Origin: Escherichia coli
Lineage (GTDB): Bacteria; Pseudomonadota; Gammaproteobacteria; Enterobacterales; Enterobacteriaceae
Reading direction: 5' to 3' (one strand)
Assembly: GCF_013315695.1 (NCBI RefSeq)
Contig: NZ_CP054353.1
Length of the DNA stretch: 64,000 nt
Shown: piece by piece, positions 1 through 24,988 of the stretch
How the letters are laid out: every line of letters begins with the position of its first letter
How positions within the stretch are numbered: position 1 is the first letter of the stretch
Notes under the pieces: model-generated
Told to the model about the DNA's origin: nothing
Database searches by the model: none
Seen by the model: only the letters and a program-made list of their open reading frames with translations
Translations under genes and position numbers: made by a program

Positions 1-26
1 CTTTCTATCAATTCTGACTTGGTCAT
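1..26 (-). CDS. ihfB: integration host factor beta subunit, first 8-9 codons only (gene runs off window start)
   Basis: Reverse complement of 1-26 reads ATGACCAAGTCAGAATTGATAGAAAG = MTKSELIE; GGAGG Shine-Dalgarno on minus strand at 31-35; lies downstream of rpsA as in E. coli. Confidence 0.6.
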
Positions 27-153
27 GATTCCTCCGGTTCCTTAAAGGCAAATTTAGCGGCTGCTGTTGCTGCATTGATTAAGGGCGGCCGTAGCCGCCC
101 TTAGTGCTTGATTACAGGACGAAACCTGCAATCTGTCAAGTAAACTCAACAAA

Positions 154-175
154 CTTCGGAATAAAAATCCCGAAG
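154..175 (-). terminator. stem-loop directly downstream of rpsA stop, candidate rpsA terminator (a second GC-rich hairpin GGGCGGC-CGTA-GCCGCCC lies at 83-100)
   Basis: CTTCGG (154-159) pairs with CCGAAG (170-175); on the minus strand it is followed by TTTGTTG. Confidence 0.4.
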
Positions 176-185
176 AGTCAGAGAA

Positions 186-1859
186 TTACTCGCCTTTAGC
201 TGCTTTGAAAGCTTCAGCCATTGCGTTGTTGGAGAAGTTTGCATCTTCCTGTTTGTTAACAGTTGCGATTGCATCTTTCTCGTCAGCTTCGTCTTTCGCA
301 CGAACAGACAGGCTGATTGCGCGGTTTTTACGATCAACGCCGGTGAATTTAGCTTCAACTTCGTCGCCAACGCTCAGAACCAGGGTAGCGTCTTCAACGC
401 GGTCACGGGATGCTTCAGAAGCACGCAGGTAACCTTCAACGCCGTCAGCCAGTTCTACGGTTGCGCCTTTAGCGTCAACTGCAGTTACTTTACCGGTTAC
501 GATAGCGCCTTTCTTGTTCAGAGCAACCCAGTTGTTGAACGGATCTTCTGCGAGCTGTTTAACGCCCAGGGAGATACGTTCACGTTCTGCGTCAACCTGC
601 AGAACAACTGCAGCGATTTCGTCGCCTTTTTTGTATTCACGAACTGCTTCTTCGCCTGCAACGTTCCAGGAGATGTCAGACAGGTGAACCAGGCCGTCGA
701 TGCCGCCGTCCAGGCCGATGAAGATACCGAAGTCAGTGATAGACTTGATTTTACCTTCAACACGGTCACCCTTGTTGTGGGTTTCCGCGAACTGCTGCCA
801 CGGGTTAGCTTTGCACTGTTTCAGACCCAGGGAGATACGACGACGTTCTTCGTCGATATCCAGAACCATAACTTCCACTACATCGCCAACGTTAACAACT
901 TTGGACGGGTGGATGTTTTTGTTGGTCCAATCCATTTCGGAAACGTGTACCAGGCCTTCAACACCTTCTTCGATTTCAACGAAGCAGCCGTAGTCGGTCA
1001 GGTTGGTCACGCGACCAGTCAGTTTGGTACCTTCCGGATAACGTTTAGCGATAGCTACCCACGGATCTTCACCCAGCTGTTTCAGGCCCAGGGATACACG
1101 GGTACGTTCGCGGTCGAACTTCAGCACTTTAACAGTGATTTCGTCGCCCACGTTGACGATTTCGCTCGGATGCTTAACGCGTTTCCAGGCCATATCAGTG
1201 ATGTGCAGCAGGCCGTCAACGCCGCCCAGATCAACGAATGCACCGTAGTCAGTGAGGTTCTTAACGATACCTTTAACTTCCATGCCTTCCTGCAGGTTTT
1301 CCAGCAGCTGATCGCGCTCTGCGCTGTTTTCGGATTCGATAACGGCACGACGAGAAACAACAACGTTGTTGCGCTTCTGATCCAGCTTGATTACTTTGAA
1401 TTCAAGCTCTTTGCCTTCCAGGTGCAGAGTGTCACGCACCGGACGAACGTCTACCAGAGAACCTGGCAGGAACGCACGAATACCGTTCAGCTCAACAGTG
1501 AAGCCGCCCTTAACTTTGCCGTTGATAACACCGGTAACAGTTTCAGCATCTTCGTAAGCTTTTTCCAGCGTGATCCAGGCTTCGTGACGTTTAGCTTTCT
1601 CACGGGACAGCAGAGTTTCACCGAAGCCGTCTTCTACTGCGTCCAGAGCAACGTCAACTTCGTCACCTACCTGGATTTCCAGCTCGCCCTGGGCGTTTTT
1701 GAACTGCTCAGCCGGGATGGCGGACTCAGATTTCAGACCAGCGTCAACCAGTACTACGTCTTTGTCGATAGCAACAACAACGCCACGAACGATAGAACCC
1801 GGGCGGGTTTCGATTTCTTTTAAGGACTCTTCAAAGAGTTGAGCAAAAGATTCAGTCAT
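186..1859 (-). CDS. rpsA: 30S ribosomal protein S1
   Basis: 557-aa ORF with six repeated S1 domains, starts [26 protein letters not shown]. Confidence 0.97.
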
Positions 1860-1969
1860 GTTTAATCTTCAGGTTTATATTTAACGTCCACCTGGCTCCA
1901 TGCCGGATGGGGTTGTTTAACATACCCGCTGTCATTCCATTGCAACGGGGGTACTGCAAATTCGGTCGC

Positions 1970-2653
1970 TTATGCGAGAGCCAATTTCTGGCGCGCGTAT
2001 TGTAGCGCTTTTTCAATCACTTGCTCAATGCTTAAGGTGGTGGAATCCAACACTAAAGCATCGGCTGCCGGAACCAGTGGCGCTACCGCTCGGTTACGAT
2101 CGCGGTCGTCGCGTTCTTTGATCTCGGCCAAAAGGCGCTCAAAGTTAACACTAAAGCCCTTCTCCTGCAACTGTAGCATGCGGCGATGCGCACGTTCTTC
2201 CGAGGAGGCGTCAAGGAAAATTTTCACTGGCGCATCAGGGAATACCACCGTTCCCATGTCGCGGCCATCGGCAATCAGGCCTGGTAATTCGCGAAACGCG
2301 CGTTGGCGACGCAATAATGCTTCACGAACGCGTGGGAATGCCGCGACTTGTGAAGCAGCATTCGCCACTTCCTGAGTACGAATTTCGCCGCTGACATCTT
2401 CCCCTTCGAGGATCACTTCCAGATTGCCATTGGTCGACACAAAACGTACATCCAGATGGGATGCCAGCGGCACCAGCGCATCTTCCGAAGCAACATCAAC
2501 ATGGTGATGTAATGCCGCCAGTGCCAGTACGCGATAAATTGCACCCGAATCCAGCAGATGCCATTGCAACGCTTCCGCCATAGCCTTACACAAGGTGCCT
2601 TTCCCTGCACCGCTTGGGCCATCAATGGTAATAACCGGGGCAATTGCCGTCAT
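1970..2653 (-). CDS. cmk: cytidylate kinase
   Basis: 227-aa ORF with P-loop GPSGAGKGT; position between rpsA and ycaL. Confidence 0.95.
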
Positions 2654-2825
2654 CTTTATCTCCTTAAAACAGGCGTACCGTTAACATAACCGCGCGCATT
2701 ATACGCGCCGACGCCACAAATCGTTAACGTTGTGTGCAAAAACCAGTTTTGTCTGTATTCAGATGGGGATTTATTGCGCAATTATAGCGGGCTGGCAGAA
2801 GACCAGCCCGAAAGATGACAATGAT

Positions 2826-3590
2826 TTACTTACCAGAGGCGATACGATCACGGATGTGTTGCGCACGCTCTGTTGATGGTGGGTGAGAGTCAAACATGGA
2901 CTGGGTACGACCGCCATCCAGGCTGGCCAATTTTTCAAAGCTGCCAACCAGCCCCTGGGTGCTGATGCCACGTTTCTTCAACAGATCAAAGGAGAAATCA
3001 TCTGCTTCGGACTCTTTATCGCGGGAGTATTTAGCATTGATCGCGCCTTCTGCGATATCACCTAATTGTGAGCGAGAAAGCTGGGAAGCCACACCGCTGG
3101 TAGCGGAAATCGCATCACGTGCGGCAACGATCGCATAAGAAGCTTTCATTTCAGCCAGCGAGTGACCCAACGCGACGTGGCCCAGTTCATGACCCAGAAC
3201 GCCTTCAATTTCGTTGTCGTTCATCATGTCCATCAGGCCACTGTAGACACGAACACAGCCGTTCGCCATCGCCCATGCGTTGACGTCGCTGGTCATATAA
3301 ACCTTATAGTTGACCGGCGTGCCATTAATATTGTTACCCAATGCTTTGGCGATTTTTGCCAGACGTTTACCGTACTTGCTGGATTTACTTGCGACTTGAT
3401 TGCCGCTGTCCATTTCGGCACAGCCCTGATTGGCAATCGCTTTTGCATCAGCATCGCTTAACGTTGCTGCTTTATAGGCATTTAAACCTGAGCTGATAGC
3501 CATATTGGTATCAATACCGTGGGTATTTTGACACCCTGTCAGTAATGCTGCAGAGGCCGCAATCGCCAGCAGTAATTTAGTATTCTTCAT
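2826..3590 (-). CDS. ycaL: M48-family metallopeptidase lipoprotein
   Basis: Lipoprotein signal MKNTKLLLAIAASAALLTGC and HELGH zinc motif; ORF track starts 8 codons upstream at 3614. Confidence 0.85.
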   Translation of the reverse strand: MKNTKLLLAIAASAALLTGCQNTHGIDTNMAISSGLNAYKAATLSDADAKAIANQGCAEMDSGNQVASKSSKYGKRLAKIAKALGNNINGTPVNYKVYMTSDVNAWAMANGCVRVYSGLMDMMNDNEIEGVLGHELGHVALGHSLAEMKASYAIVAARDAISATSGVASQLSRSQLGDIAEGAINAKYSRDKESEADDFSFDLLKKRGISTQGLVGSFEKLASLDGGRTQSMFDSHPPSTERAQHIRDRIASGK

Positions 3591-3699
3591 GTGAATCATC
3601 CGTTGATTAATCATATATAAATATTATGTATCAACAACTTACATTGACAAGCGACGCTACCATTAATCAAAATGACTCACAAGGTCCGAAAAAAAACGC

Positions 3700-3712
3700 C
3701 GACAATGTGCCG
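3700..3712. repeat. IS4 target-site duplication, left copy (CGACAATGTGCCG)
   Basis: Identical 13 bp at 5139-5151 immediately flank the element. Confidence 0.85.
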
Positions 3713-5138
3713 TAATGCCGATCAGTTAAGGATCAGTTGACCGATCCAGTGGCTGTGTAAGAATCCGGAAACGCTCACTTGTTTCCGGATTTTTTTATGC
3801 ACATTGGACAGGCTCTTGATCTGGTATCCCGTTACGATTCTCTGCGTAACCCACTGACTTCTCTGGGGGATTACCTCGACCCCGAACTCATCTCTCGTTG
3901 CCTTGCCGAATCAGGTACTGTAACGCTACGCAAGCGCCGTCTTCCCCTCGAAATGATGGTCTGGTGTATTGTTGGCATGGCGCTTGAGCGTAAAGAACCT
4001 CTTCACCAGATTGTGAATCGCCTGGACATCATGCTGCCGGGCAATCGCCCCTTCGTTGCCCCCAGTGCCGTTATTCAGGCCCGCCAGCGCCTGGGAAGTG
4101 AGGCTGTCCGCCGCGTGTTCACGAAAACAGCGCAGCTCTGGCATAACGCCACGCCGCATCCGCACTGGTGCGGCCTGACCCTGCTGGCCATCGATGGTGT
4201 GTTCTGGCGCACACCGGATACACCAGAGAACGATGCAGCCTTCCCCCGCCAGACACATGCCGGGAACCCGGCGCTCTACCCGCAGGTCAAAATGGTCTGC
4301 CAGATGGAACTGACCAGCCATCTGCTGACGGCTGCAGCCTTCGGCACGATGAAGAACAGCGAAAATGAGCTTGCTGAGCAACTTATAGAACAAACCGGCG
4401 ATAACACTCTGACGTTAATGGATAAAGGTTATTACTCACTGGGACTGTTAAATGCCTGGAGCCTGGCGGGAGAACACCGCCACTGGATGATACCTCTCAG
4501 AAAGGGAGCGCAATATGAAGAGATCAGAAAACTGGGTAAAGGCGATCATCTGGTGAAGCTGAAAACCAGCCCGCAGGCACGAAAAAAGTGGCCGGGACTG
4601 GGAAATGAAGTGACAGCCCGCCTGCTGACCGTGACGCGCAAAGGAAAAGTCTGCCATCTGCTGACGTCGATGACGGACGCCATGCGCTTCCCCGGAGGAG
4701 AAATGGCGGATCTGTACAGTCATCGCTGGGAAATCGAACTGGGATACAGGGAGATAAAACAGACGATGCAACTGAGCAGGCTGACGCTGAGAAGTAAAAA
4801 ACCGGAGCTTGTGGAGCAAGAGCTGTGGGGTGTCTTACTGGCTTATAATCTGGTGAGATATCAGATGATTAAAATGGCGGAACATCTGAAAGGTTACTGG
4901 CCGAATCAACTGAGTTTCTCAGAATCATGCGGAATGGTGATGAGAATGCTGATGACATTGCAGGGCGCTTCACCGGGACGTATACCGGAGCTGATGCGCG
5001 ATCTTGCAAGTATGGGACAACTTGTGAAATTACCGACAAGAAGGGAAAGGGCCTTCCCGAGAGTGGTAAAGGAGAGGCCCTGGAAATACCCCACAGCCCC
5101 GAAAAAGAGCCAGTCAGTTGCTTAACTGACTGGCATTA
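3713..5138 (+). mobile_element. IS4 insertion sequence, complete (1426 bp)
   Basis: Terminal inverted repeats TAATGCCGATCAGTTAAG (left) and CTTAACTGACTGGCATTA (right); single DDE transposase ORF; flanked by 13-bp direct repeat. Confidence 0.9.
3797..5125 (+). CDS. insG: IS4 transposase (InsG-like)
   Basis: 442-aa ORF from [16 protein letters not shown]; ORF track extends 6 codons upstream to 3779. Confidence 0.9.
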
Positions 5139-5151
5139 CGACAATGTGCCG
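5139..5151. repeat. IS4 target-site duplication, right copy (CGACAATGTGCCG)
   Basis: Matches 3700-3712. Confidence 0.85.
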
Positions 5152-5197
5152 ACGTTTTGATAAAGAAAGATTTGGCTATTTATTGCACGTTGTTCAT

Positions 5198-6481
5198 TCA
5201 GGCTGCCTGGCTAATCCGCGCCAGCTGCTCGAAATAATCCGGAAATGTTTTGGCCGTGCATTTGGGATCAAGAATCGTCACTGCCGTATCTGATAATGCG
5301 ACCAGCGAGAAACACATCGCCATCCGGTGATCATTATAAGTGGCGATCTCAGCAAATTTCAGTTTTTCCGGTGGCGTAATGCGAATAAAATCGTGCCCCT
5401 CTTCGACTTCCGCACCAACTTTACGCAGTTCTGTTGCCATCGCAAACAGGCGATCGGTCTCTTTAACACGCCAGTTATAGATATTGCGCAGCGTGGTGGT
5501 GCCTTTTGCAAATAACGCCGCCGTGGCAATGGTCATCGCCGCATCAGGAATATGGTTCATATCCATATCAATGGCGTTCAGTTCACCACGCGTGCAGGAA
5601 ATATAATCATCGCCCCAGCAAATGGTCGCACCCATTTTTTCCAGCACATCAGCAAAGCGAATATCACCCTGCATACTGTTGCGTCCAATGCCGGTCACTT
5701 TTACAGTGCCGCCTCTGATTGCTGCTGCTGCCAGGAAATAAGAAGCCGAGGATGCATCGCCTTCGACCAAATAAGTACCCGGAGACTGATAAGACTGCCC
5801 CCCTTTTACGACAAATTGTTGATAGTGCTGATTTTCAATTTCAACACCAAACGTCTTCATCAGATTGAGGGTGATGTCGATATAAGGTTTAGAAACCAGA
5901 TCGCCTTTAATACGAATCACCGTATCTTCCGACGCAAGAGGTGCAGTCATTAACAGTGCGGTGAGGAACTGGCTGGAAACGGAGCCATCAACGTCAACGT
6001 TGCCGCCAGTAAAGCCGCCCTGTAAACGCAATGGTGGATAATTTTCTTGTTCCAGGTAAGTGATCTTCGCCCCGCCCAGGCGCAGCGCATCCACCAGATG
6101 ACCAATGGGGCGTTCTTTCATACGCGGTTCACCGGTCAGCACAATATCATTGCTACCCAGACAAAGAGCTGCCGCCAGCGGACGCATTGCCGTTCCGGCG
6201 TTACCGAGGAACAACTCCAGGGCACTTTTTGCGTGTAATGGACCGCCGTTACCGATGATTTCGCAACGCGTACGATCGGCTGAAAGCGTATAGCTTACCC
6301 CTAACGCTGCTAATGCATTCAGCATATGGCGCACGTCATCGCTATCCAGCAGATTGGTTAATACTGTTTTGCCATGTGCTAATGCCGCCAGCAATAAAGC
6401 GCGGTTAGAAACGCTCTTGGAACCAGGCAGATTAATGGTGCCATCGACACGAGCGATGGGTTGTAACGTCAGGGATTCCAT
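5198..6481 (-). CDS. aroA: 3-phosphoshikimate 1-carboxyvinyltransferase (EPSP synthase)
   Basis: 427-aa ORF starting [23 protein letters not shown]. Confidence 0.97.
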
Positions 6482-6551
6482 GAACTCAACTCTCTACAAC
6501 AGAAATAAAAACCCCACAGGCTGGCTGTGGGGATTAAGCAAAATTTCGGCA

Positions 6552-7640
6552 TTAGCCGTGACGGCGTTCGAACTCAACCATGAAGTCTGTCAGCGCTTTA
6601 ACGCCTTCCAGCGGCATGGCGTTATAAATAGACGCGCGCATTCCGCCGACCACACGGTGACCTTTCAGCGCATGAAGGCCAGCAGCAAAAGACTCTTCAA
6701 GGAACAATTTGTCAAGCGCACTGTCCGCCAACTGGAACGGCACGTTCATCCGCGAACGGTTAGCTTTCGCCACGTCATTGCGGTAGAAATCGCTGTTATC
6801 AATCACCCCATACAGCAGTTCTGCTTTTTGCTGATTGATTTTATCCATTGCAGCTACACCGCCGTTCGCTTTCAGCCATTTAAAGACCAGACCAGACAGA
6901 TACCAGGCAAATGTCGGCGGCGTGTTGAACATGGAATCGTTATCGTTGAGGATGGAGTAATCCAGAATCGATGGGCAGGCGATATTCGCTTTGCCCAGCA
7001 AATCTTCACGAACGATGACGATTGTCAGGCCAGCCGGGCCGATATTTTTCTGCGCGCCAGCGTAAATTACCCCATAACGGCTGACATCAATCGGACGGGA
7101 AAGAATGGTTGAAGAGAAGTCGGCGGCGACCACCACATCTTTGCCGAAGTCTGGCGTTTCGTCGATGGCGATACCGTCGATGGTTTCATTCGGGCAGTAA
7201 TGCATATAAGCAGCATTATCAGAGAGCTGCCATTCTCGCATTGGCTTAACCGCGCGCAGACCATCAACAGTCACTTTGGCGTCAAAGACATTAGGCGTGC
7301 AGTATTTTTTCGCTTCTTTAATGGCACTTGCCGCCCAGTAACCGGCATCAACATAATCTGCAGTGGTTTTATCACCGAGAATATTCAGCGGAACAGCAGC
7401 AAACTGACCGCGACCGCCGCCATGGCAGAACAATACCTTGTAGTTGGAGGGGACATTAAGAAGATCGCGAAAATCCTTCTCGGCTTCCTCTGCAACCTGA
7501 ATGAACTCTTTGCCCCGGTGACTCACTTCCATCACCGACGTACCAAGACCGTTCCAGTCGCGCAGTTCCTGTTGAGCCTGTTTAAGCACCTCTGCCGGTA
7601 GCATTGCCGGACCAGAACTAAAATTGAAGATTTGAGCCAT
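6552..7640 (-). CDS. serC: phosphoserine aminotransferase
   Basis: 362-aa ORF starting [15 protein letters not shown]; upstream of aroA in the same orientation (serC-aroA operon). Confidence 0.97.
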
Positions 7641-7838
7641 TTCCCCTCACCACGTTGCGTTGCTATTAACCCGCGGTCAATCGATTGCGACCACAGGTAA
7701 TACATTATTCCTGTGGCTATCGGTTTTATCATTCAGTGACACACATCGCAATGAGTAAAACCGTTGAGGGCAAAAATGTGGCTTGCATCACACAAAAGAA
7801 TCTCTCGGATTATTAGCAAAAAGCCGATGTTTTTACTG

Positions 7839-8531
7839 TCACGTCACCCGTTTTGCCCGACTTGCCTTCGTCCATTCTGGATTTGCACAGCGCGGACATA
7901 ATTGTTTTTCCCCCGCGTTCATATGAATGATTTCACTGCAACGAATGCAGGCATAGTCCGCCGACTCGGGTACCACTTTGTAACGCTGAGTACAATCACT
8001 GGGTAAAATAAGTAAACCCGGTTTCACCTTGTCATCTTCAAAGAAATAGACACTGATTTGCCCGTTGGTTTCGAGAATCGCCAGACGTACCTGCCCCAAC
8101 TGCTCCACTCCACGCAGTCGCAGCTCCATAAAGAACTCAAATTCCGTCATGTTGGAGTTATTAAGTTTCGACCAGGCCAGCTCACCATCCTCAATAATGA
8201 CAACCGGCTTGCCTTCCAGAAGATCTTCCAGTTTTTCACTGTGCGCCATCAACCACATTACCAGGCGGTATAACAAAGCCAGAGTAATAAAGACGATAAG
8301 TACCGGGACCATCGGCACATCATCATAAAACGCCACATCTCCCGCCGCTGACCCCAGCGTCAGAATGATTAACACTTCAAAAAGCGACATCTGCCGCACA
8401 CCGCGTCTTCCGGTCATTTTGAGGAACAAAAAAACCAGTACAAAGGTATAAAGACTACGTAGTGCCACTTCGCCAAGGAAATCAAAAGGCACTTTATCAA
8501 ATGCCATACGGTGGAGATCGAACGCCTTCAT
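7839..8531 (-). CDS. ycaP: inner-membrane protein (DUF421-like)
   Basis: 230-aa ORF with N-terminal hydrophobic helices; synteny between serC and ycaO. Confidence 0.8.
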   Translation of the reverse strand: MKAFDLHRMAFDKVPFDFLGEVALRSLYTFVLVFLFLKMTGRRGVRQMSLFEVLIILTLGSAAGDVAFYDDVPMVPVLIVFITLALLYRLVMWLMAHSEKLEDLLEGKPVVIIEDGELAWSKLNNSNMTEFEFFMELRLRGVEQLGQVRLAILETNGQISVYFFEDDKVKPGLLILPSDCTQRYKVVPESADYACIRCSEIIHMNAGEKQLCPRCANPEWTKASRAKRVT

Positions 8532-8660
8532 TTTTATGCTCTTATCGTGGTTTATCCACTAAAAGCATAGTCAACAGTTCATCGGCATGGCGGCGGTGAT
8601 AGCGCCTTTGAGATAAAACCCGTATTATTGCGCGCTTTCCGTACGACTAAAGTGATTTTC

Positions 8661-10421
8661 ATGACGCAAACATTTATCCCCGGCAAAGATGCCGCACTGG
8701 AAGATTCCATCGCTCGCTTCCAGCAAAAACTTTCAGACCTCGGCTTTCAGATTGAAGAGGCCTCCTGGCTGAATCCCGTGCCTAACGTCTGGTCTGTACA
8801 TATTCGCGACAAAGAGTGCGCACTGTGTTTTACCAACGGTAAAGGCGCAACCAAAAAAGCGGCGCTGGCTTCTGCACTCGGTGAATATTTCGAGCGTCTC
8901 TCAACCAACTACTTTTTTGCTGACTTCTGGCTGGGCGAAACCATCGCCAACGGTCCGTTCGTGCATTATCCCAACGAAAAATGGTTCCCACTGAGCGAAA
9001 ATGACGATGTGCCAGAAGGGCTGCTCGATGACCGTCTGCGCGCATTTTACGATCCGGAGAATGAACTGACCGGCAGCATGCTGATTGACCTACAATCCGG
9101 TAACGAAGATCGTGGTATTTGCGGTCTACCGTTTACGCGCCAGTCCGACAATCAGACCATTTATATTCCGATGAATATCATTGGTAACTTGTACGTTTCT
9201 AACGGTATGTCTGCTGGCAATACCCGTAACGAAGCACGCGTTCAGGGGTTGTCCGAAGTTTTCGAACGTTACGTGAAAAACCGCATTATTGCTGAAAGCA
9301 TCAGCTTGCCGGAAATCCCGGCAGACGTGCTGGCGCGTTACCCAGCGGTGGTTGAAGCCATCGAAACACTGGAAGCAGAAGGTTTCCCAATCTTTGCTTA
9401 TGATGGTTCGCTTGGCGGCCAGTATCCGGTGATTTGCGTGGTACTGTTCAATCCTGCTAACGGTACCTGCTTTGCCTCTTTCGGTGCGCATCCTGATTTT
9501 GGCGTAGCACTGGAACGTACCGTGACCGAGCTGCTGCAAGGTCGTGGCCTGAAAGATTTGGATGTGTTTACTCCGCCAACCTTCGATGATGAAGAAGTTG
9601 CTGAACATACCAACCTCGAAACGCACTTTATCGATTCCAGCGGTTTAATCTCCTGGGACCTGTTCAAGCAGGATGCCGATTATCCGTTTGTGGACTGGAA
9701 TTTCTCCGGCACTACGGAAGAAGAGTTTGCTACGCTGATGGCTATCTTCAACAACGAAGATAAAGAAGTTTATATTGCCGATTACGAGCATCTGGGCGTT
9801 TATGCTTGCCGAATTATCGTGCCTGGCATGTCCGATATTTATCCGGCTGAAGATCTGTGGCTGGCGAATAACAGTATGGGCAGCCATTTACGTGAAACGA
9901 TTCTTTCGCTACCAGGTAGCGAGTGGGAAAAGGAAGATTACCTGAACCTCATCGAGCAACTGGATGAAGAAGGTTTTGATGACTTTACCCGCGTGCGTGA
10001 ACTGTTGGGTCTGGCGACCGGGTCGGATAACAGCTGGTACACTCTGCGTATCGGAGAATTAAAAGCCATGCTGGCGCTGGCTGGTGGCGATCTGGAACAG
10101 GCTCTGGTCTGGACCGAATGGACGATGGAGTTTAACTCATCAGTATTTAGTCCGGAACGCGCCAACTATTATCGCTGCCTGCAAACGTTGTTATTACTGG
10201 CGCAGGAAGAAGATCGCCAGCCGCTGCAATATTTGAATGCGTTTGTTCGCATGTACGGCGCAGATGCCGTGGAAGCCGCCAGTGCGGCAATGAGCGGTGA
10301 ATCGGCGTTTTATGGCCTGCAACCCGTAGATAGCGATCTGCACGCATTTGCTGCACATCAATCGTTGCTGAAGGCCTACGAAAAGCTGCAGCGCGCCAAA
10401 GCGGCATTCTGGGCAAAATAA
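8661..10421 (+). CDS. ycaO: YcaO-domain protein
   Basis: 586-aa product starting MTQTFIPGKDAALEDSIARF (ORF track begins 11 codons upstream at 8628). Confidence 0.9.
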   Translation: MTQTFIPGKDAALEDSIARFQQKLSDLGFQIEEASWLNPVPNVWSVHIRDKECALCFTNGKGATKKAALASALGEYFERLSTNYFFADFWLGETIANGPFVHYPNEKWFPLSENDDVPEGLLDDRLRAFYDPENELTGSMLIDLQSGNEDRGICGLPFTRQSDNQTIYIPMNIIGNLYVSNGMSAGNTRNEARVQGLSEVFERYVKNRIIAESISLPEIPADVLARYPAVVEAIETLEAEGFPIFAYDGSLGGQYPVICVVLFNPANGTCFASFGAHPDFGVALERTVTELLQGRGLKDLDVFTPPTFDDEEVAEHTNLETHFIDSSGLISWDLFKQDADYPFVDWNFSGTTEEEFATLMAIFNNEDKEVYIADYEHLGVYACRIIVPGMSDIYPAEDLWLANNSMGSHLRETILSLPGSEWEKEDYLNLIEQLDEEGFDDFTRVRELLGLATGSDNSWYTLRIGELKAMLALAGGDLEQALVWTEWTMEFNSSVFSPERANYYRCLQTLLLLAQEEDRQPLQYLNAFVRMYGADAVEAASAAMSGESAFYGLQPVDSDLHAFAAHQSLLKAYEKLQRAKAAFWAK

Positions 10422-10428
10422 AATCAAA

Positions 10429-10447
10429 TAGCCTACGCAATGTAGGC
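10429..10447 (+). terminator. stem-loop after ycaO stop (AGCCTAC-GCAAT-GTAGGCT)
   Basis: Perfect 7-bp inverted repeat; no strong U-tract. Confidence 0.35.
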
Positions 10448-10452
10448 TTAAT

Positions 10453-10826
10453 GATTCGTCTGAGTTATATTACGGGGCGTTTTTTTAATGCCCCGCTTTA
10501 CATATATTTGCATTAATAAAATAATTGTAATTATAAAGTTAAATATCGGTAATTTGTATTTAATAAATACGATCGATATTGTTACTTTATTCGCCTGGTG
10601 CTCCCTTTTAATTAACTGTTTTAGCGGAGGATGCGGAAAAAATTCAACTCATTTGTTAATTTTTAAAATTTATTTTTATTTGGATAATCAAATATTTACT
10701 CCGTATTTGCATAAAAACCATGCGAGTTACGGGCCTATAAGCCAGGCGAGATATGATCTATATCAATTTCTCATCTATAATGCTTTGTTAGTATCTCGTC
10801 GCCGACTTAATAAAGAGAGAGTTAGT
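10453..10826 (+). promoter_or_regulatory. AT-rich focA-pflB upstream regulatory region
   Basis: About 370-bp noncoding AT-rich segment ahead of focA; known in E. coli to carry multiple promoters with FNR/ArcA/IHF control, but individual sites were not mapped here. Confidence 0.5.
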
Positions 10827-11684
10827 GTGAAAGCTGACAACCCTTTTGATCTTTTACTTCCTGCAGCAATGGCCAAAGTGGCCGAAGAGGCAGGTGTCTA
10901 TAAAGCAACGAAACATCCGCTTAAGACTTTCTATCTGGCGATTACCGCCGGTGTTTTCATCTCAATCGCATTCGTCTTCTATATCACAGCAACCACTGGC
11001 ACAGGAACAATGCCCTTCGGCATGGCAAAACTGGTTGGCGGCATTTGCTTCTCTCTGGGGCTGATTCTTTGTGTTGTCTGCGGAGCCGATCTCTTTACTT
11101 CCACAGTGTTGATTGTTGTTGCTAAGGCGAGTGGGCGCATCACCTGGGGTCAGTTGGCGAAAAACTGGCTAAATGTTTATTTTGGCAACCTAGTCGGCGC
11201 ACTGCTGTTTGTACTTTTAATGTGGCTTTCCGGCGAGTATATGACCGCAAATGGTCAATGGGGACTAAACGTCCTACAAACCGCCGACCACAAAGTGCAC
11301 CATACTTTTATTGAGGCCGTCTGTCTTGGTATCCTGGCAAACCTGATGGTATGTCTGGCAGTATGGATGAGTTATTCTGGCCGCAGCCTGATGGACAAAG
11401 CGTTCATTATGGTGCTGCCGGTCGCGATGTTTGTTGCCAGCGGTTTTGAGCACAGTATCGCAAACATGTTTATGATCCCGATGGGTATTGTAATCCGCGA
11501 CTTCGCATCTCCGGAATTCTGGACCGCTGTCGGTTCTGCACCGGAAAATTTTTCTCACCTGACCGTGATGAATTTCATCACTGATAACCTGATTCCGGTT
11601 ACGATCGGTAATATTATCGGCGGTGGTTTGTTGGTTGGGTTGACATACTGGGTCATTTACCTGCGTGAAAACGATCACCATTAA
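10827..11684 (+). CDS. focA: formate channel
   Basis: GTG start giving VKADNPFDLLLPAAMAKVAEEAG, 285 aa, multi-pass membrane protein; ORF track is extended upstream to 10488. Confidence 0.9.
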   Translation: MKADNPFDLLLPAAMAKVAEEAGVYKATKHPLKTFYLAITAGVFISIAFVFYITATTGTGTMPFGMAKLVGGICFSLGLILCVVCGADLFTSTVLIVVAKASGRITWGQLAKNWLNVYFGNLVGALLFVLLMWLSGEYMTANGQWGLNVLQTADHKVHHTFIEAVCLGILANLMVCLAVWMSYSGRSLMDKAFIMVLPVAMFVASGFEHSIANMFMIPMGIVIRDFASPEFWTAVGSAPENFSHLTVMNFITDNLIPVTIGNIIGGGLLVGLTYWVIYLRENDHH

Positions 11685-11738
11685 TGGTTGTCGAAGTACG
11701 CAGTAAATAAAAAATCCACTTAAGAAGGTAGGTGTTAC

Positions 11739-14021
11739 ATGTCCGAGCTTAATGAAAAGTTAGCCACAGCCTGGGAAGGTTTTACCAAAGGTGACTGGCA
11801 GAATGAAGTAAACGTCCGTGACTTCATTCAGAAAAACTACACTCCGTACGAGGGTGACGAGTCCTTCCTGGCTGGCGCTACTGAAGCGACCACCACCCTG
11901 TGGGACAAAGTAATGGAAGGCGTTAAACTGGAAAACCGCACTCACGCGCCAGTTGACTTTGACACCGCTGTTGCTTCCACCATCACCTCTCACGACGCTG
12001 GTTACATCAACAAGCAGCTTGAGAAAATCGTTGGTCTGCAGACTGAAGCTCCGCTGAAACGTGCTCTTATCCCGTTCGGTGGTATCAAAATGATCGAAGG
12101 TTCCTGCAAAGCGTACAACCGCGAACTGGACCCGATGATCAAAAAAATCTTCACTGAATACCGTAAAACTCACAACCAGGGCGTGTTCGACGTTTACACT
12201 CCGGACATCCTGCGTTGCCGTAAATCCGGTGTTCTGACCGGTCTGCCAGATGCTTATGGCCGTGGTCGTATCATCGGTGACTACCGTCGCGTTGCGCTGT
12301 ACGGTATCGACTACCTGATGAAAGACAAACTTGCACAGTTCACCTCTCTGCAGGCTGATCTGGAAAACGGCGTAAACCTGGAACAGACTATCCGTCTGCG
12401 CGAAGAAATCGCTGAACAGCACCGCGCTCTGGGTCAGATGAAAGAAATGGCTGCGAAATACGGCTACGACATCTCTGGTCCGGCTACCAACGCTCAGGAA
12501 GCTATCCAGTGGACTTACTTCGGCTACCTGGCTGCTGTTAAGTCTCAGAACGGTGCTGCAATGTCCTTCGGTCGTACCTCCACCTTCCTGGATGTGTACA
12601 TCGAACGTGACCTGAAAGCTGGCAAGATCACCGAACAAGAAGCGCAGGAAATGGTTGACCACCTGGTCATGAAACTGCGTATGGTTCGCTTCCTGCGTAC
12701 TCCGGAATACGATGAACTGTTCTCTGGCGACCCGATCTGGGCAACCGAATCTATCGGTGGTATGGGCCTCGACGGTCGTACCCTGGTTACCAAAAACAGC
12801 TTCCGTTTCCTGAACACCCTGTACACCATGGGTCCGTCTCCGGAACCGAACATGACCATTCTGTGGTCTGAAAAACTGCCGCTGAACTTCAAGAAATTCG
12901 CCGCTAAAGTGTCCATCGACACCTCTTCTCTGCAGTATGAGAACGATGACCTGATGCGTCCGGACTTCAACAACGATGACTACGCTATCGCTTGCTGCGT
13001 AAGCCCGATGATCGTTGGTAAACAAATGCAGTTCTTCGGTGCGCGTGCAAACCTGGCGAAAACCATGCTGTACGCAATCAACGGCGGCGTTGACGAAAAA
13101 CTGAAAATGCAGGTTGGTCCGAAGTCTGAGCCGATCAAAGGCGATCTCCTGAACTACGATGAAGTGATGGAGCGCATGGATCACTTCATGGACTGGCTGG
13201 CTAAACAGTACATCACTGCACTGAACATCATCCACTACATGCACGACAAGTACAGCTACGAAGCCTCTCTGATGGCGCTGCACGACCGTGACGTTATCCG
13301 CACCATGGCGTGTGGTATCGCTGGTCTGTCCGTTGCTGCTGACTCCCTGTCTGCAATCAAATATGCGAAAGTTAAACCGATTCGTGACGAAGACGGTCTG
13401 GCTATCGACTTCGAAATCGAAGGCGAATACCCGCAGTTTGGTAACAACGATCCGCGTGTAGATGACCTGGCTGTTGACCTGGTAGAACGTTTCATGAAGA
13501 AAATTCAGAAACTGCACACCTACCGTGACGCTATCCCGACTCAGTCTGTTCTGACCATCACTTCTAACGTTGTGTATGGTAAGAAAACTGGTAACACCCC
13601 AGACGGTCGTCGTGCTGGCGCGCCGTTCGGACCAGGTGCTAACCCGATGCACGGTCGTGACCAGAAAGGTGCAGTAGCCTCTCTGACTTCCGTTGCTAAA
13701 CTGCCGTTTGCTTACGCTAAAGATGGTATCTCCTACACCTTCTCTATCGTTCCGAACGCACTGGGTAAAGACGACGAAGTTCGTAAGACCAACCTGGCTG
13801 GTCTGATGGATGGTTACTTCCACCACGAAGCATCCATCGAAGGTGGTCAGCACCTGAACGTTAACGTGATGAACCGTGAAATGCTGCTCGACGCGATGGA
13901 AAACCCGGAAAAATATCCGCAGCTGACCATCCGTGTATCTGGCTATGCAGTACGTTTCAACTCGCTGACTAAAGAACAGCAGCAGGACGTTATTACTCGT
14001 ACCTTCACTCAATCTATGTAA
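11739..14021 (+). CDS. pflB: pyruvate formate-lyase
   Basis: 760-aa ORF starting [15 protein letters not shown], ending with the glycyl-radical region RVSGYAVRF. Confidence 0.97.
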
Positions 14022-14063
14022 TTAGATTTGACTGAAATCGTACAGTAAAAAGCGTACAATAAA

Positions 14064-14089
14064 GGCTCCACGAAAGTGGGGCCTTTTTT
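14064..14089 (+). terminator. rho-independent terminator after pflB
   Basis: GGCTCCAC-GAAA-GTGGGGCC hairpin followed by TTTTTT. Confidence 0.6.
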
Positions 14090-14212
14090 AGCACGAGAGC
14101 CTTTTTTGTCAGCTATCTATACTTTAAGGTGACTGCCAAAACAGACTCGACGTAGCCTTCGAGCTGCGCACCAACACGGCCTCAGATGGGCCACATCTGG
14201 AGAAACACCGCA

Positions 14213-14953
14213 ATGTCAGTTATTGGTCGCATTCACTCCTTTGAATCCTGTGGAACCGTAGACGGCCCGGGTATTCGCTTTATCACCTTTTTCCAGGGCT
14301 GCCTGATGCGCTGCCTGTATTGTCATAACCGCGACACCTGGGATACGCATGGCGGTAAAGAAGTTACCGTTGAAGATTTGATGAAGGAAGTGGTGACCTA
14401 TCGCCACTTTATGAACGCTTCCGGCGGCGGCGTTACCGCATCCGGCGGTGAGGCAATCCTACAAGCTGAGTTTGTTCGTGACTGGTTCCGCGCCTGCAAA
14501 AAAGAAGGCATTCATACCTGTCTGGACACCAACGGTTTTGTTCGTCGTTACGATCCGGTGATTGATGAACTGCTGGAAGTAACCGACCTGGTAATGCTCG
14601 ATCTCAAACAGATGAACGACGAGATCCACCAAAATCTGGTTGGAGTTTCAAACCACCGCACGCTGGAGTTCGCCAAATATCTGGCGAACAAAAATGTGAA
14701 GGTGTGGATCCGCTACGTTGTTGTGCCAGGCTGGTCTGACGATGACGATTCAGCGCATCGCCTCGGTGAATTTACCCGTGATATGGGCAACGTTGAGAAA
14801 ATCGAGCTTCTCCCCTACCACGAACTGGGCAAACACAAATGGGTGGCGATGGGCGAAGAGTACAAGCTCGACGGTGTAAAACCACCGAAAAAAGAGACGA
14901 TGGAGCGAGTAAAAGGCATTCTTGAACAATATGGTCATAAAGTGATGTTTTAG
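14213..14953 (+). CDS. pflA: pyruvate formate-lyase activating enzyme (radical SAM)
   Basis: 246 aa from [20 protein letters not shown] with the CxxxCxxC cluster motif [10 protein letters not shown]. Confidence 0.95.
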
Positions 14954-15023
14954 AACATCATTGCAGGTTGAATGTCGACCTGTAATTTTGGCTCCTTCCC
15001 CCTTCTTTTAGTTAGAATAAATA

Positions 15024-15055
15024 AATCAGCGTTGAGTGTATGCTCGACGCTGATT
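15024..15055. terminator. inverted repeat between convergent pflA and BcsC-like gene
   Basis: AATCAGCGTTGAG / CTCGACGCTGATT arms with one mismatch; T-rich run follows on the minus strand. Confidence 0.5.
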
Positions 15056-15099
15056 TATTGAGCTTAATTTTCGTACTGTAACTTTCCGATGCTACGTTA

Positions 15100-18000
15100 C
15101 TACCCGTCGGCGTAAGGTATCAGCGGCTGTGGCGGTAAATCCATATCGCCCTGCCATCCGGCGGCGGAATACCGTACATAGAGCTGGAAGTGACTTGGCG
15201 CATAATCCTTCGCTTTCTGGATATCAATCGCCGTACCAACAAACCAGTTGGACGTGACGCGACGTTCAAGTAATGCCCGTGCCGTGTAACCAAAACCCTG
15301 ACTGCTGCTACCACTGTTGGATTGTTGTGCTGCTTCTTCCTGCCAGTCGCTCGGGATCAGGTTCATCAGCGGATAACGCGGCATGGTTTTGGTCCGTGAG
15401 TGCGACCATGAACCTGAAGCCCCCAGCTCCCACGACCAGTTTTCCGTCCGCTCGCGCCACATCACCGGCACCGCAAACGACAGGTATTCCTGCGGGCTGT
15501 AGTAACCGCCCTGACCCAGTGAGTACTCACTCAGGTCTTTGTCGTAATGCCAGATCATGTTGTTCAGGCCAATGGTAACGCGGCGGTTATTCTCGTTGAT
15601 AATTTTATAGTAATAGCCCGTCATCCAGCGCACGCGCCAGTTATCTTCGACATTTTTACCGGTTAACTGATCACCGCTAAGCGATGCCCAGACGCCGTTT
15701 GCTTCACCTTTATCGTAACTCAGACTTAGCCCCACGCCGTCGGCACGCACGCCGCCCCATTTTTTCCCGGTGTTGCCCGGAGAATCTTTCTGCCCGCCGA
15801 AGGCCAGCATTGAGCTGGAGACAGGCCGACGATGTGCGTCAACGGTATAGCCGAGTGGGCCGATACTGTCGCTGTAACTGACAGCGCCGACCACATCCAC
15901 CACGTTGAATCCCATCGGTGTGGTGCCAATATCCCAGCTCCAGGTGTCGTTGCGCCAGCCAACCGCCACGCTTGTGCCGGAGTCTGACTGACTGCGGTTG
16001 CCGCTACACTCCTGCAGCGTACAGGTTCCCCAGTTATCATCCCATTTGCCATCGGCATTAGTGGAGAAACTGCCGACGTTCATATTGACGAAATCACTGC
16101 GAAAGAACATCCGACCGTCAGAATACGGCGCATCCACCTGCAACATGGTGGTATGTGCTTTCAGGTCAGAATAGCCGCCAGTGCCGTTTGATCCCCAGTA
16201 GTCGTGCTCCAGGGTGACATTGAGATCCTGCTGACGATAAAGATCTGCCGCATCGCTGCGCACGCCACGTTTCAGCCAGTCATCCTGCTCATCATTACGG
16301 GTAAGGCGGGTAAAGGTGTCGTTATCCTGCGGACGTGTCGTCGTCACGCCGGAAGCGATCATCGCATCTTTGTAGGTTTCCAGCGCCTGTTGCGGTTCAC
16401 CCGCCTGCGCCTCAAATTTTGCGCCATCGCGCAGTACCATCGCGCTTTCCATCGACGGCGGCTGAGATTTTGCCTGCAGGATCAGCCTGTTAAATGTCTG
16501 CTGTGCCGCTGCGGTATCGCCAAGCTGTGCCTGCACCAACGCCACGCGCCGCTGAGTGTTCAGCGAGGCGTTATCGGTGGCGGGAAGTTTCGCCAGTTGA
16601 CTGCGCGCCGCGGCTTTGTCGCCTGCGGCAATATCCACTTCCGTCAGGCCAAGAATGGCATCGGCGTTATTCGACTCCCGCGCCAGCACATTCTGATACG
16701 CCGTGCGGGCGGCGGTGTAATCGCGTCGCTGTTGTGCCCAGTCAGCCAGCGTAAGATCAATGCGCGTGGAAGGCGGTTGCTGGCGTAGCATCGCCTCCGC
16801 ATCCTGTTCTTTGCCACTGTCACGCAGGCGATTAGCCGTTTCCAGAATCTGATCGCTTTGCAGGCGATTCACCAGTTCCTGAATGTTGCCGTTCCACCGG
16901 GCGCGCGGCAGATTGTTAATATGCGCCAGCGCCGCCCGCTCCTGATCGTGACCGGAGAGATACAGTCCGTAAGCGTAAACCTGGTCCGGGTCGTTCGGCT
17001 TCTGTTGCGCCAGGTTACGCATTAACGTATCAGCCTGGGTACGTTGTCCGGCCTGCCAGAGATCCTGCGAAAGCCGGTAAGTTACCCACACACTGCCGGG
17101 GTCCAGCGCCAGTCGTTGCCGCTGAAGTGCTGCCGCCTGCGCCCATTTACCCTGATTTTCCAGCGCCTCCGCCTGCTGCGATAAGCGATCGTTTTGCAGA
17201 CTGCGTTCGATATCATCAATACTGCGCCGCTGGCTGGCAGAAAGTGACGCAATAAACGCTTCAGCTTTTTCCGGCGATTGCTGCCGATAAATGTTCGCCA
17301 GTCCACGCACGGCGTTAGTGTTGCCGCTGTCCATACGCAGGGTCTGCTGATAATAACGTTCGGCGGCGGGGTAATCTTTTCGCGCCATTGCCACATCACC
17401 CAGCCCCAGCACCGCATAGCTGTCGGTGTTATCGACATTGCGTGCCTGCAGGAACAGGCGTTCCGCCTGATCAGGATTGTTCGCTTTCAGTGCGGCATCG
17501 CCCTGTTGGATCGCCAGCCAATAACGGTTCACTTTCAGCAAACTGTTCCATTTGTCGTTGTTGCTGCTGTGCGGGCCCAGCGCGAGGGCTTTTTCCAGAT
17601 TTGCCACCGCATTCGCGCGATCGCCTTTCTGTGAATAAGCCTGGCCCAGCGCCCCCAATATTGCACCAGAGTTTGGGTTATCAATATTAAGTTTTTTCAA
17701 CTGACTAATTGCCTCGTTGCGACGAGATGCAATTTGCGCCACTGCACTCCAGTATTCCAACGCCATGCCGACATCTGACGGTACTCCGTTAAATAGCTTG
17801 TCATAACTGACAATAGCCTCCTCGTATCGCCCGGAGATAGCTTGTAAACGCGCCATTTGCAATGCCTGGCGCCCCTCAAGCGAAGAAAGTCGCATGACCG
17901 TACGCGATGCTTTATATATTTTTGAATCTGGGGCGATCAGAGAAAGTCTGGCAAGTTGTTTGTGTGCTCCGTCAATATCCCCCTTGCGAAGCAGATAGCG

Positions 18001-18219
18001 AAACCGAGCCGCAACGACATCAGGATTATTGGGCTCCACCAATTCAAGGCGATAAAGCGACTGCTCCACCAGTTCTTCACGGTGAGAGTCTTCTCCCAAT
18101 CGAATCTGTGCCATCAGCAGTTGATAAGCAGTTGGCGTGGCTTTTGCCATCGACATTACCGCCAAACCAAGAGATATGGTGAGTAAATTTAGGGTGAATT
18201 TGTGCATACCTGGACTCAA
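15100..18219 (-). CDS. BcsC-like TPR-repeat / outer-membrane export subunit of a cellulose-synthase-like system
   Basis: 1039-aa ORF with signal peptide, long TPR region and C-terminal beta-barrel-like tail ending PLIPYADG; last gene of the minus-strand operon; GC-rich (about 55-60 percent). Confidence 0.8.
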   Translation of the reverse strand: MSPGMHKFTLNLLTISLGLAVMSMAKATPTAYQLLMAQIRLGEDSHREELVEQSLYRLELVEPNNPDVVAARFRYLLRKGDIDGAHKQLARLSLIAPDSKIYKASRTVMRLSSLEGRQALQMARLQAISGRYEEAIVSYDKLFNGVPSDVGMALEYWSAVAQIASRRNEAISQLKKLNIDNPNSGAILGALGQAYSQKGDRANAVANLEKALALGPHSSNNDKWNSLLKVNRYWLAIQQGDAALKANNPDQAERLFLQARNVDNTDSYAVLGLGDVAMARKDYPAAERYYQQTLRMDSGNTNAVRGLANIYRQQSPEKAEAFIASLSASQRRSIDDIERSLQNDRLSQQAEALENQGKWAQAAALQRQRLALDPGSVWVTYRLSQDLWQAGQRTQADTLMRNLAQQKPNDPDQVYAYGLYLSGHDQERAALAHINNLPRARWNGNIQELVNRLQSDQILETANRLRDSGKEQDAEAMLRQQPPSTRIDLTLADWAQQRRDYTAARTAYQNVLARESNNADAILGLTEVDIAAGDKAAARSQLAKLPATDNASLNTQRRVALVQAQLGDTAAAQQTFNRLILQAKSQPPSMESAMVLRDGAKFEAQAGEPQQALETYKDAMIASGVTTTRPQDNDTFTRLTRNDEQDDWLKRGVRSDAADLYRQQDLNVTLEHDYWGSNGTGGYSDLKAHTTMLQVDAPYSDGRMFFRSDFVNMNVGSFSTNADGKWDDNWGTCTLQECSGNRSQSDSGTSVAVGWRNDTWSWDIGTTPMGFNVVDVVGAVSYSDSIGPLGYTVDAHRRPVSSSMLAFGGQKDSPGNTGKKWGGVRADGVGLSLSYDKGEANGVWASLSGDQLTGKNVEDNWRVRWMTGYYYKIINENNRRVTIGLNNMIWHYDKDLSEYSLGQGGYYSPQEYLSFAVPVMWRERTENWSWELGASGSWSHSRTKTMPRYPLMNLIPSDWQEEAAQQSNSGSSSQGFGYTARALLERRVTSNWFVGTAIDIQKAKDYAPSHFQLYVRYSAAGWQGDMDLPPQPLIPYADG

Positions 18220-19968: not shown

Positions 19969-19977
19969 CGGTTATCT
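19969..19977. repeat. IS1 target-site duplication, left copy (CGGTTATCT)
   Basis: Identical 9 bp at 20746-20754. Confidence 0.9.
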
Positions 19978-20032
19978 GGTGATGCTGCCAACTTACTGAT
20001 TTAGTGTATGATGGTGTTTTTGAGGTGCTCCA

Positions 20033-20308
20033 GTGGCTTCTGTTTCTATCAGCTGTCCCTCCTGTTCAGCTACTGACGGGGTGGTGCGTAACGGCAAAAG
20101 CACCGCCGGACATCAGCGCTATCTCTGCTCTCACTGCCGTAAAACATGGCAACTGCAGTTCACTTACACCGCTTCTCAACCCGGTACGCACCAGAAAATC
20201 ATTGATATGGCCATGAATGGCGTTGGATGCCGGGCAACAGCCCGCATTATGGGCGTTGGCCTCAACACGATTTTACGTCACTTAAAAAACTCAGGCCGCA
20301 GTCGGTAA
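20033..20308 (+). CDS. insA: IS1 InsA
   Basis: 91-aa [33 protein letters not shown]. Confidence 0.9.
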
Positions 20309-20730
20309 CCTCGCGCATACAGCCGGGCAGTGACGTCATCGTCTGCGCGGAAATGGACGAACAGTGGGGCTATGTCGGGGCTAAATCGCGCCAGCGCTGG
20401 CTGTTTTACGCGTATGACAGGCTCCGGAAGACGGTTGTTGCGCACGTATTCGGTGAACGCACTATGGCGACGCTGGGGCGTCTTATGAGCCTGCTGTCAC
20501 CCTTTGACGTGGTGATATGGATGACGGATGGCTGGCCGCTGTATGAATCCCGCCTGAAGGGAAAGCTGCACGTAATCAGCAAGCGATATACGCAGCGAAT
20601 TGAGCGGCATAACCTGAATCTGAGGCAGCACCTGGCACGGCTGGGACGGAAGTCGCTGTCGTTCTCAAAATCGGTGGAGCTGCATGACAAAGTCATCGGG
20701 CATTATCTGAACATAAAACACTATCAATAA
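20227..20730 (+). CDS. insB: IS1 InsB frame (expressed as InsAB' by programmed -1 frameshift)
   Basis: Overlapping -1 frame ORF downstream of insA, typical IS1 arrangement. Confidence 0.85.
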
Positions 20731-20745
20731 GTTGGAGTCATTACC

Positions 20746-24984: not shown

Positions 24985-24988
24985 TGTG

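Follow-up and report, generated by a model that had tools for sequence, protein, structure and literature searches.

Insertion of IS4 into the predicted serC-aroA terminator of Escherichia coli, a recurrent target of the element

In a stretch of Escherichia coli DNA of 64,000 nt (hereafter the window), a copy of the insertion sequence IS4 lies between the end of the serC-aroA operon and the start of ycaL. This arrangement raises the question of why the element is found at exactly this position, and of what its presence means for the transcription units on either side. An earlier sequence-only reading of the window had described a full-length IS4 of exactly 1426 bp with 18-bp terminal inverted repeats and a 13-bp target duplication, located about 60 bp downstream of serC-aroA and about 120 bp upstream of ycaL. 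Here, we compared the locus with other IS4 insertions and with complete E. coli genomes.

The IS4 copy and its insertion site

The features of the locus are listed below in the order of their coordinates in the window.

2826..3590, minus strand: ycaL (M48 metallopeptidase lipoprotein), intact, the downstream neighbour; Pfam Peptidase_M48, and a 254-aa RefSeq CDS at the identical locus
3606..3650, minus strand: candidate core promoters of ycaL, retained between IS4 and ycaL (promoter scan, and hexamers in PMC3946193)
3689..3712, minus strand: distal half of the split putative serC-aroA terminator (descending stem and T8 tract)
3700..3712, no strand: target-site duplication, ycaL-side copy, CGACAATGTGCCG
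3713..3730, plus strand: left terminal inverted repeat of IS4 (IRL), TAATGCCGATCAGTTAAG, 18 bp
3737..3764, plus strand: promoter-like site for the transposase, TTGACC-16-AAGAAT with TG, predicted by a consensus scan only
3759..3796, plus strand: hairpin and T7 inside the IS4 left end, directly before the transposase ATG (inverted repeat and fold)
3797..5125, plus strand: IS4 transposase gene, 442 aa from the ATG; the RefSeq form has 448 aa from a TTG at 3779
5099..5134, minus strand (the aroA strand): terminator-like hairpin inside the IS4 right end, with an 11-bp stem GCCAGTCAGTT/AACTGACTGGC followed by TCTTTTTCGG; putative function
5121..5138, plus strand: right terminal inverted repeat of IS4 (IRR), CTTAACTGACTGGCATTA, 18 bp
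5139..5151, no strand: target-site duplication, aroA-side copy, CGACAATGTGCCG
5139..5158, minus strand: proximal half of the split putative serC-aroA terminator (A-tract and ascending stem; U-tract lost)
5198..6481, minus strand: aroA (EPSP synthase), intact, the upstream neighbour (Pfam EPSP_synthase 1.9e-148, and annotation)
6552-7640, minus strand: serC, a neighbour; cmk and rpsA also lie on the minus strand

By direct reading and with a repeat finder, the region 3713-5138 on the plus strand is a complete IS4 of 1426 bp. Many RefSeq E. coli genomes have a feature named 'IS4-like element IS4 family transposase' that is 100% identical to it across 1426/1426 bp. The ends TAATGCCGATCAGTTAAG and TAATGCCAGTCAGTTAAG (the right end as its reverse complement) agree at 16/18 positions, and thus the 18-bp inverted repeats are present in an imperfect form. 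No further IS4 end was found within the 64,000-nt window. The transposase reading frame is uninterrupted, matches the Pfam families Nterm_IS4 (3e-33) and DDE_Tnp_1 (9e-32), and has a Y(2)R(3)E(6)K motif at residue 307; an identical protein was found in thousands of sequence-collection blocks. The copy is presumably active, and transposition is plausible given the intact reading frame and ends and the 12-18 IS4-matching places in the closest genomes. Across complete E. coli genomes, IS4 is present in 2686/5426; the number of IS4 places has a median of 1 and reaches 32 at most.

In its length, inverted repeats, single DDE/YREK reading frame and a duplication within 11-14 bp, the copy is no different from the IS4 of E. 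coli, which is the prototype of the IS4 family (InsG in K-12), and its chromosomal location alone sets it apart. The related elements IS10 and IS50 (of Tn10 and Tn5) also have a DDE/YREK transposase, a symmetric synaptic complex and a staggered cut of about one helical turn, and structures at their ends limit activation by outside transcription. They differ from IS4 in producing 9-bp duplications and in having a weak target consensus, whereas IS4 duplicates 11-14 bp and has a far stronger arm specificity. The IS4-family features common to IS10/IS50 and IS4 have been described (PMC2266710).

The element ends 59 nt past the aroA stop codon and 122 nt before the ycaL ATG (start at 3590), as the sequence-only reading had estimated. 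It is bordered by CGACAATGTGCCG at 3700-3712 and at 5139-5151; these two copies are 1439 bp apart and abut both IS4 ends, forming an exact 13-bp duplication for which the chance of a matching 13-mer at precisely that position is about 4^-13 = 1.5e-8. When IS4 and one copy of the duplication are removed, the rebuilt empty site is AAAACGTCGGCACATTGTCGGCGTTTTTTTT, and the aroA strand reads ...CAAAACGTCGGCACATTGTCGGCGTTTTTTTTCGG... The comparison with a genome that is IS-free at this junction, which had been proposed as a check, gave the same result, since the aroA-ycaL site of K-12 MG1655 is empty and has the same sequence, uninterrupted. On the aroA strand, the empty site folds into a 12-bp stem (including an A:U base) with a 3-nt loop and U8, beginning 42 nt past the aroA stop codon. 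Taken over its full 84 nt, the empty-site region has an unremarkable z-score (-0.75), and it is terminator-like only at the local hairpin.

By sequence and folding, the IS4 target is the predicted Rho-independent (intrinsic) terminator of serC-aroA, and with an A-tract on its other side it is potentially bidirectional. A terminator-like sequence after aroA was reportedly described by Duncan and Coggins in 1986. When 2500-6600 was searched against Rfam at E<=1, neither the spacer nor IS4 matched any known RNA family. Since the duplicated 13 bp correspond to the loop and upper stem of the hairpin, the insertion splits this putative terminator in two. The sequence-only reading had suggested that the serC-aroA terminator may be displaced; this was right, and understated what happened to the hairpin.

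Target specificity of IS4

To place the site among other targets, IS4 copies at 22 distinct loci were retrieved with the exact transposase protein and two variants. The duplications at these 22 loci are 11-14 bp long, and the targets are symmetric, of the form A5-N3-[11-14 bp duplicated]-N3-T5, which is usually a bidirectional terminator. Read outward from the edge of the duplication, positions 1-3 of each arm are G/C-rich and are followed by a T run (A on the other arm); T is found at outward position 5 in 41/44 arms and at outward position 6 in 43/44 arms. The arms of the window target, GCGTTTTTTTT and ACGTTTTG, fit this consensus, with T/A at outward positions 4-8 and G/C-rich positions 1-3. 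According to gene tables, most of the IS4 targets have a stop codon within about 40-130 nt, as at adhE|tdk, mdoH|yceK, bamD|raiA, eno, rpoD|mug, degS|mdh, clpB, ssb|yjcB and bipA. When the targets were rebuilt, 14/22 folded at -16 kcal/mol or below, compared to 4% of background windows (binomial P of about 1e-14). Seven or eight targets, several of them intragenic, have little or no hairpin (-2.9 to -11.6 kcal/mol) and have T at outward positions 5-6 on both arms. The retention of the A/T arms in these hairpin-poor targets speaks for a reading of the arms and against a reading of the structure.

We next scored the window with a position matrix that describes the arms only and was trained on the 21 other loci, with aroA-ycaL excluded and the window made IS4-free. 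In this leave-one-out analysis, position 3700 with a 13-bp duplication ranked 1/250,114 among all position-by-length candidates, with a score of 19.0 bits. As a forward test, the second-ranked site, the pflB terminator at 14067, was searched for by means of hypothetical insertions in either orientation, and IS4 was found there in 0/5426 genomes. These results show that a match to the arms-only matrix looks necessary and is insufficient to predict occupancy alone. Because the pflB terminator is never occupied, other determinants or selection must act as well.

Part of this preference has been described before. The direct duplications made by IS4 correspond to about one helical turn, with 11-13 bp reported. 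Klaer and Starlinger, and Mayaux et al. in 1984, are reported to have found IS4 repeatedly in one preferred galT site, an IS4 in the pheST attenuator, and a consensus of the AAA-N20-TTT type. In a limited search, we found no publication that identifies the aroA-ycaL terminator as a hotspot for IS4 or that puts the IS4 target rule in terms of bidirectional terminators; this is weak evidence of novelty and no proof of it. Target-arm specificity in the IS4 subgroup has been noted as a general remark (De Palmenaer et al. 2008, PMC2266710), and the symmetric, strongly conserved arms of the published specificity (an A-run and a T-run about 3 bp outside the duplication) are seen here too. Taken together, the target preference of IS4 is well supported here and partly published.

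Recurrence at aroA-ycaL and alternative explanations

We found that the same spacer is occupied in many E. coli genomes. Searching for the flank-IS4-flank arrangement, IS4 was present at aroA-ycaL in the window orientation in 39/5426 complete genomes and in the opposite orientation in 57/5426. Orientation at the loci was called with 40-nt ends, because no more than 2 nt distinguish one inverted repeat from the other. Eight occupied genomes were fetched, seven of them sampled from the aroA-ycaL matches together with MS 21-1, and all eight (8/8) have the identical 13-bp position and a 13-bp duplication. The copy in B-2207 (1422 bp, annotated as frameshifted) was left out of the full-length IS4 comparisons. 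IS4 at aroA-ycaL is already annotated in the public genomes of CE10, IAI39, NCTC86 and SMS-3-5. The recurrence of the site in many lineages, and the dictation of its position by target specificity, had been missed by the sequence-only reading.

Both copies of the duplication in CE10 (forward) and in SMS-3-5 (reverse) carry the lineage allele CGGCAATGTGCCG (the G allele), and the A allele is the one found in the window, in NCTC86 and in 14EC029. Only 3+1 nt over 6 kb of flanking sequence separate the occupied NCTC86EC from the empty K-12; compared to the window NCTC86EC shows more, since it has 27+84 nt of flank differences, yet its IS4 is identical. Between the window and NCTC86 the nearest flank differences are 49 and 156 nt from IS4, and overall flank differences start 3-49 nt from the element. 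IS4 is identical in backgrounds whose flanks are about 2-3% different. Since both orientations occur, lineage alleles are found in both duplication copies and the flank haplotypes differ, the comparison implies no fewer than three independent insertions, with four or five being probable. The 96 occupied genomes do not represent 96 separate events, since clonal relatives are frequent among the carriers. Other terminators are also used recurrently by IS4, such as adhE|tdk with duplications of 11 and 12 bp and mdoH|yceK in both orientations.

From these results, IS4 very probably transposed into the serC-aroA terminator owing to its match with the symmetric target of the element, at a site that is used recurrently and independently; the insertion is found here because this putative terminator is a near-perfect match to that target. 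This target runs from an A-tract through some 3 G/C-rich bp, the duplicated 11-14 bp and another 3 bp or so to a T-tract, and it has the architecture of a bidirectional intrinsic terminator. A dimeric, Tn5-like transposase may read both A/T arms, and its staggered cuts, placed symmetrically about the hairpin loop, would duplicate the 13 bp and split the terminator.

Four other explanations were weighed against this one, and two of them concern how the site is chosen. A single ancient insertion could have been inherited vertically and spread by homologous recombination, with no hotspot at all, and it would place all copies at exactly the same 13 bp, as observed; E. coli recombines, and some carriers are close kin (the NCTC86 assemblies, and strain 20 compared to SMS-3-5). 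However, one event does not account for two orientations, for the G allele in both duplication copies of CE10 and SMS-3-5, for an identical IS4 between flanks that diverge by about 2-3% and begin to differ within 3-49 nt, or for NCTC86 flanks that are almost the same as those of the empty K-12, and adhE/tdk and yceK/mdoH have been reused with different orientations or duplication lengths. Orientation, the allele-specific duplications and the flank haplotypes led us to reject a single ancestral insertion, which is already largely refuted and scarcely credible. The recognition of an extruded hairpin or cruciform of the terminator, instead of the A/T arm sequence, would explain why the duplication lies at the centre of a strong, near-perfect palindrome in 14/22 targets. 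Yet the seven or eight targets with little or no hairpin keep T at outward positions 5-6, the A-allele site of the window forms only a weak DNA hairpin (-5.5 kcal/mol) and is used like the G allele (-12.7 kcal/mol), and the arms-only matrix is enough to rank the real site first, which makes recognition of the hairpin itself unlikely.

The remaining two explanations concern the host. If IS4 usefully altered the expression of aroA or ycaL, positive selection could add to target preference, and the location between an operon and the promoter of the next gene, together with the empty second-best target at pflB, would fit occupancy that is shaped by more than arm sequence. In contrast, regulatory effects would differ between the two orientations that are both found, the candidate core promoters of ycaL are unchanged with no outward promoter seen, loss of YcaL in Salmonella has no detectable phenotype (PMC11481492), only 96/2686 IS4-bearing genomes carry the insertion, and purifying selection at pflB-pflA accounts equally well for the empty pflB site; we therefore give a benefit to the host very little probability. 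The sequence-only reading had taken IS4, together with IS1 and a frameshift in ycaM, to suggest an IS-rich, decaying (Shigella-like) genome, in which IS4 would be a symptom of decay in Shigella or a source like it. The context of the window beyond the IS4 locus is as follows.

19978-20745: IS1 with a 9-bp duplication, inside an accessory bcsB
29746: 11-bp frameshifting deletion in ycaM
about 36345 to the window end: P2-like prophage, between dmsA and serS

Both lesions are real, with the accessory bcsB broken by IS1 and ycaM frameshifted. The description as IS-rich is fair, because the closest genomes have 12-18 IS4-matching places compared to the median of 1, and at least 40 pieces matching the query that included IS1. 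The likeness to Shigella is unsupported. In a comparison that covered E. coli genomes, the nearest relatives are human E. coli isolates: identity of the window to E. coli MS 21-1, from human colon, is 99.95% across 1-19977 and 99.83% across 20746-26515, and identity to E. coli AF3 (blood culture, UK) is reported as 100.0% over 19000-36338. In addition, the surrounding core genes (rpsA, cmk, ycaL, aroA, serC, ycaP, ycaO, focA, pflB and dmsABC) are intact, and the same IS4 site is occupied in commensal, ExPEC and environmental strains (NCTC86, CE10, IAI39 and SMS-3-5). An origin of the insertion in Shigella-like decay is improbable from this comparison among E. coli genomes and from the intact core genes, and insertion by target preference into the putative serC-aroA terminator is the reading that we retain.

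Consequences for the neighbouring genes and for IS4

The sequence-only reading had also suggested that IS4 may displace or replace the ycaL promoter. Two candidate core promoters of ycaL were identified, TTGTCA-16-CATAAT at 3650-3623 by promoter scan and TTGATA-17-ATTAAT at 3634-3606, and the hexamers of the latter match an entry in a SELEX table in which TTGATA/ATTAAT is a constitutive sigma-70 promoter in the aroA>ycaL spacer (Shimada 2014, PMC3946193). Since both candidates are unchanged between IS4 and ycaL, displacement of the promoter is unsupported. A consensus scan of the IS4 left end found no outward promoter-like site directed toward ycaL that could replace it. We infer that ycaL keeps its own promoter.

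On the aroA side, the proximal half of the putative terminator has lost its U-tract, and 4 nt beyond it lies the 11-bp hairpin of the IS4 right end, followed by UCUUUUUCGG. This hairpin is listed by the terminator scan and is part of the minimum-energy fold of the aroA 3' region, and aroA transcripts may stop there, as sequence and folding suggest. On the ycaL side, the duplication together with the adjacent GCG and T8 (minus strand) keeps a 5-bp stem plus U8, and this remnant is also listed by the terminator scan. At the other end of the element, the hairpin at 3759-3796 has a 14-bp stem followed by U7 and lies between the promoter-like site and the transposase ATG; its fold has an energy of -23.5 kcal/mol (z = -5.4), and 0/200 shuffled sequences were equally stable. 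It is absent from the list of the simple terminator scan. In the opposite orientation of IS4, this left-end hairpin would face aroA. If these inferences hold, the insertion would be close to neutral, which would explain its persistence in many lineages, and its effect is probably near neutral. For this locus little is at stake, with aroA, ycaL and the ycaL promoter candidates intact.

The two hairpins lead to a tentative proposal, possible rather than probable, that IS4 is a 'terminator-homing' element. At either end it has a terminator-like hairpin that faces inward (plus strand, 3759-3796; minus strand, 5134-5099), and these hairpins would make up for the terminator that it interrupts. If true, an interrupted operon would regain a terminator within about 30-85 nt whichever way IS4 is oriented, and the transposase would be shielded from read-through. 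Terminators would then be self-repairing safe havens for IS4, and this would explain the repeated, apparently harmless insertions at aroA-ycaL, adhE-tdk, yceK-mdoH, rpoD-mug, degS-mdh, eno and others. Older IS4 literature may already contain this idea of a self-supplied terminator.

Related strategies are known from other mobile elements. In bacteria, group II introns of class C use retrohoming with a ribozyme and a reverse transcriptase to enter the DNA directly behind intrinsic terminators. They resemble IS4 in using terminators as 'safe-haven' sites with little damage to host genes, whereas IS4 moves by cut-and-paste DDE transposition, into the hairpin and not after it. IS1397 and ISKpn1 (in REP/BIME sequences) and ISRm22 (an IS4-family element in REPs) likewise home to extragenic palindromes at generally harmless intergenic sites (PMC1525189). 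Unlike the repeated REP family, the palindromes used by IS4 are unique, gene-specific terminators, and recognition is seemingly by the A/T arms and not by a repeated core sequence.

The IS4 at aroA-ycaL is an ordinary insertion of a known element, and its biology is known; what is mildly new is the homoplasy documented at this site and the hypothesis that both ends of IS4 supply replacement terminators. Since the presence of IS4 at aroA-ycaL is homoplasic, arising from independent insertions in both orientations, it is no clonal marker unless the orientation and the flanking alleles are checked. IS4 sites are partly predictable from sequence, within the limit set by the pflB terminator, which is predicted and never occupied, and this predictability can therefore aid annotation and the reading of IS4 expansions. 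More broadly, a symmetric target preference of the transposase directs the insertion sequence to terminators, at which it does little harm to the host.

Accessory regions and differences from close relatives

The IS4 copy between aroA and ycaL is followed in the window by several accessory or altered features:

15100-27337, accessory cellulose-synthase-like cluster between pflA and ycaM, with bcsC/bcsB/bcsA and GGDEF and EAL proteins
19978-20745, IS1, 768 bp, with the InsB ORF at 20227-20730 (Pfam DDE_Tnp_IS1)
28436-29855, minus strand, ycaM, frameshifted
36345-64000, P2-like prophage, integrated between dmsA and serS
36428-37435, minus strand, prophage integrase

We searched the complete E. 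coli genomes with the segment 19000-38000, which runs from part of the cellulose-synthase-like cluster through to the prophage edge. The results show that at least 80% of this query is covered in only 9 of 5426 genomes, some of which are merely about 90% identical. The accessory bcsB-like gene is interrupted by the IS1 (19978-20745), which is bordered by a 9-bp target duplication. Comparison with two closely matching genomes showed that AF3 (blood culture, UK) carries this IS1 copy, and that MS 21-1 (human colon) is without it.

The ycaM frameshift is caused by an 11-bp deletion at position 29746 relative to MS 21-1, and ycaM is likewise annotated as frameshifted in AF3. A 1-nt insertion relative to MS 21-1 was also found at 28133. 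In MS 21-1 itself, the closest relative, ycaI (ComEC family; 14160-16423 of the fetched MS 21-1 locus L001) is annotated as frameshifted; this gene lies outside the window, just left of its start.

The gene content of the P2-like prophage includes a Dam-type methyltransferase, the replication protein GPA, a terminase, the P2 major capsid protein and baseplate J. The dmsA-serS site is without this prophage in both MS 21-1 and AF3, and MSB1_4I reaches about 1.3 kb further.

Occupied and empty terminators

Two other terminators are also repeatedly targeted by IS4, in different genomes, namely adhE-tdk (fetched loci L010, L026 and L028) and mdoH-yceK (L011, L023 and L029). At adhE-tdk, the IS4 duplications are 11 and 12 bp on different alleles, and at mdoH-yceK, IS4 was found in both orientations. 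In E. coli B-2207 (L005), the aroA-ycaL hotspot holds an IS4 copy in decay: it is 1422 bp long, its transposase is frameshifted, and the adjoining A-tract is 9 nt versus 8 nt.

Within the window, the pflB terminator (14067-14080) ranks second by the IS4 target matrix. None of the 5426 complete E. coli genomes carries IS4 there in either orientation. Such insertions may be selected against, or the site may lack a determinant, the imperfect A-arm AATAAAGGC being one example.

The left end of IS4

3737-3796, plus strand, promoter-like site TTGACC-16-AAGAAT with a hairpin and U7, inside IS4

This promoter-like site and the 5′ arm of a strong hairpin overlap, and the hairpin with its U7 stops at the transposase ATG. 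RNA begun at the promoter-like site would not contain the 5′ arm, whereas transcripts reading in from outside would fold into the complete hairpin. This arrangement may be a guard against outside activation.
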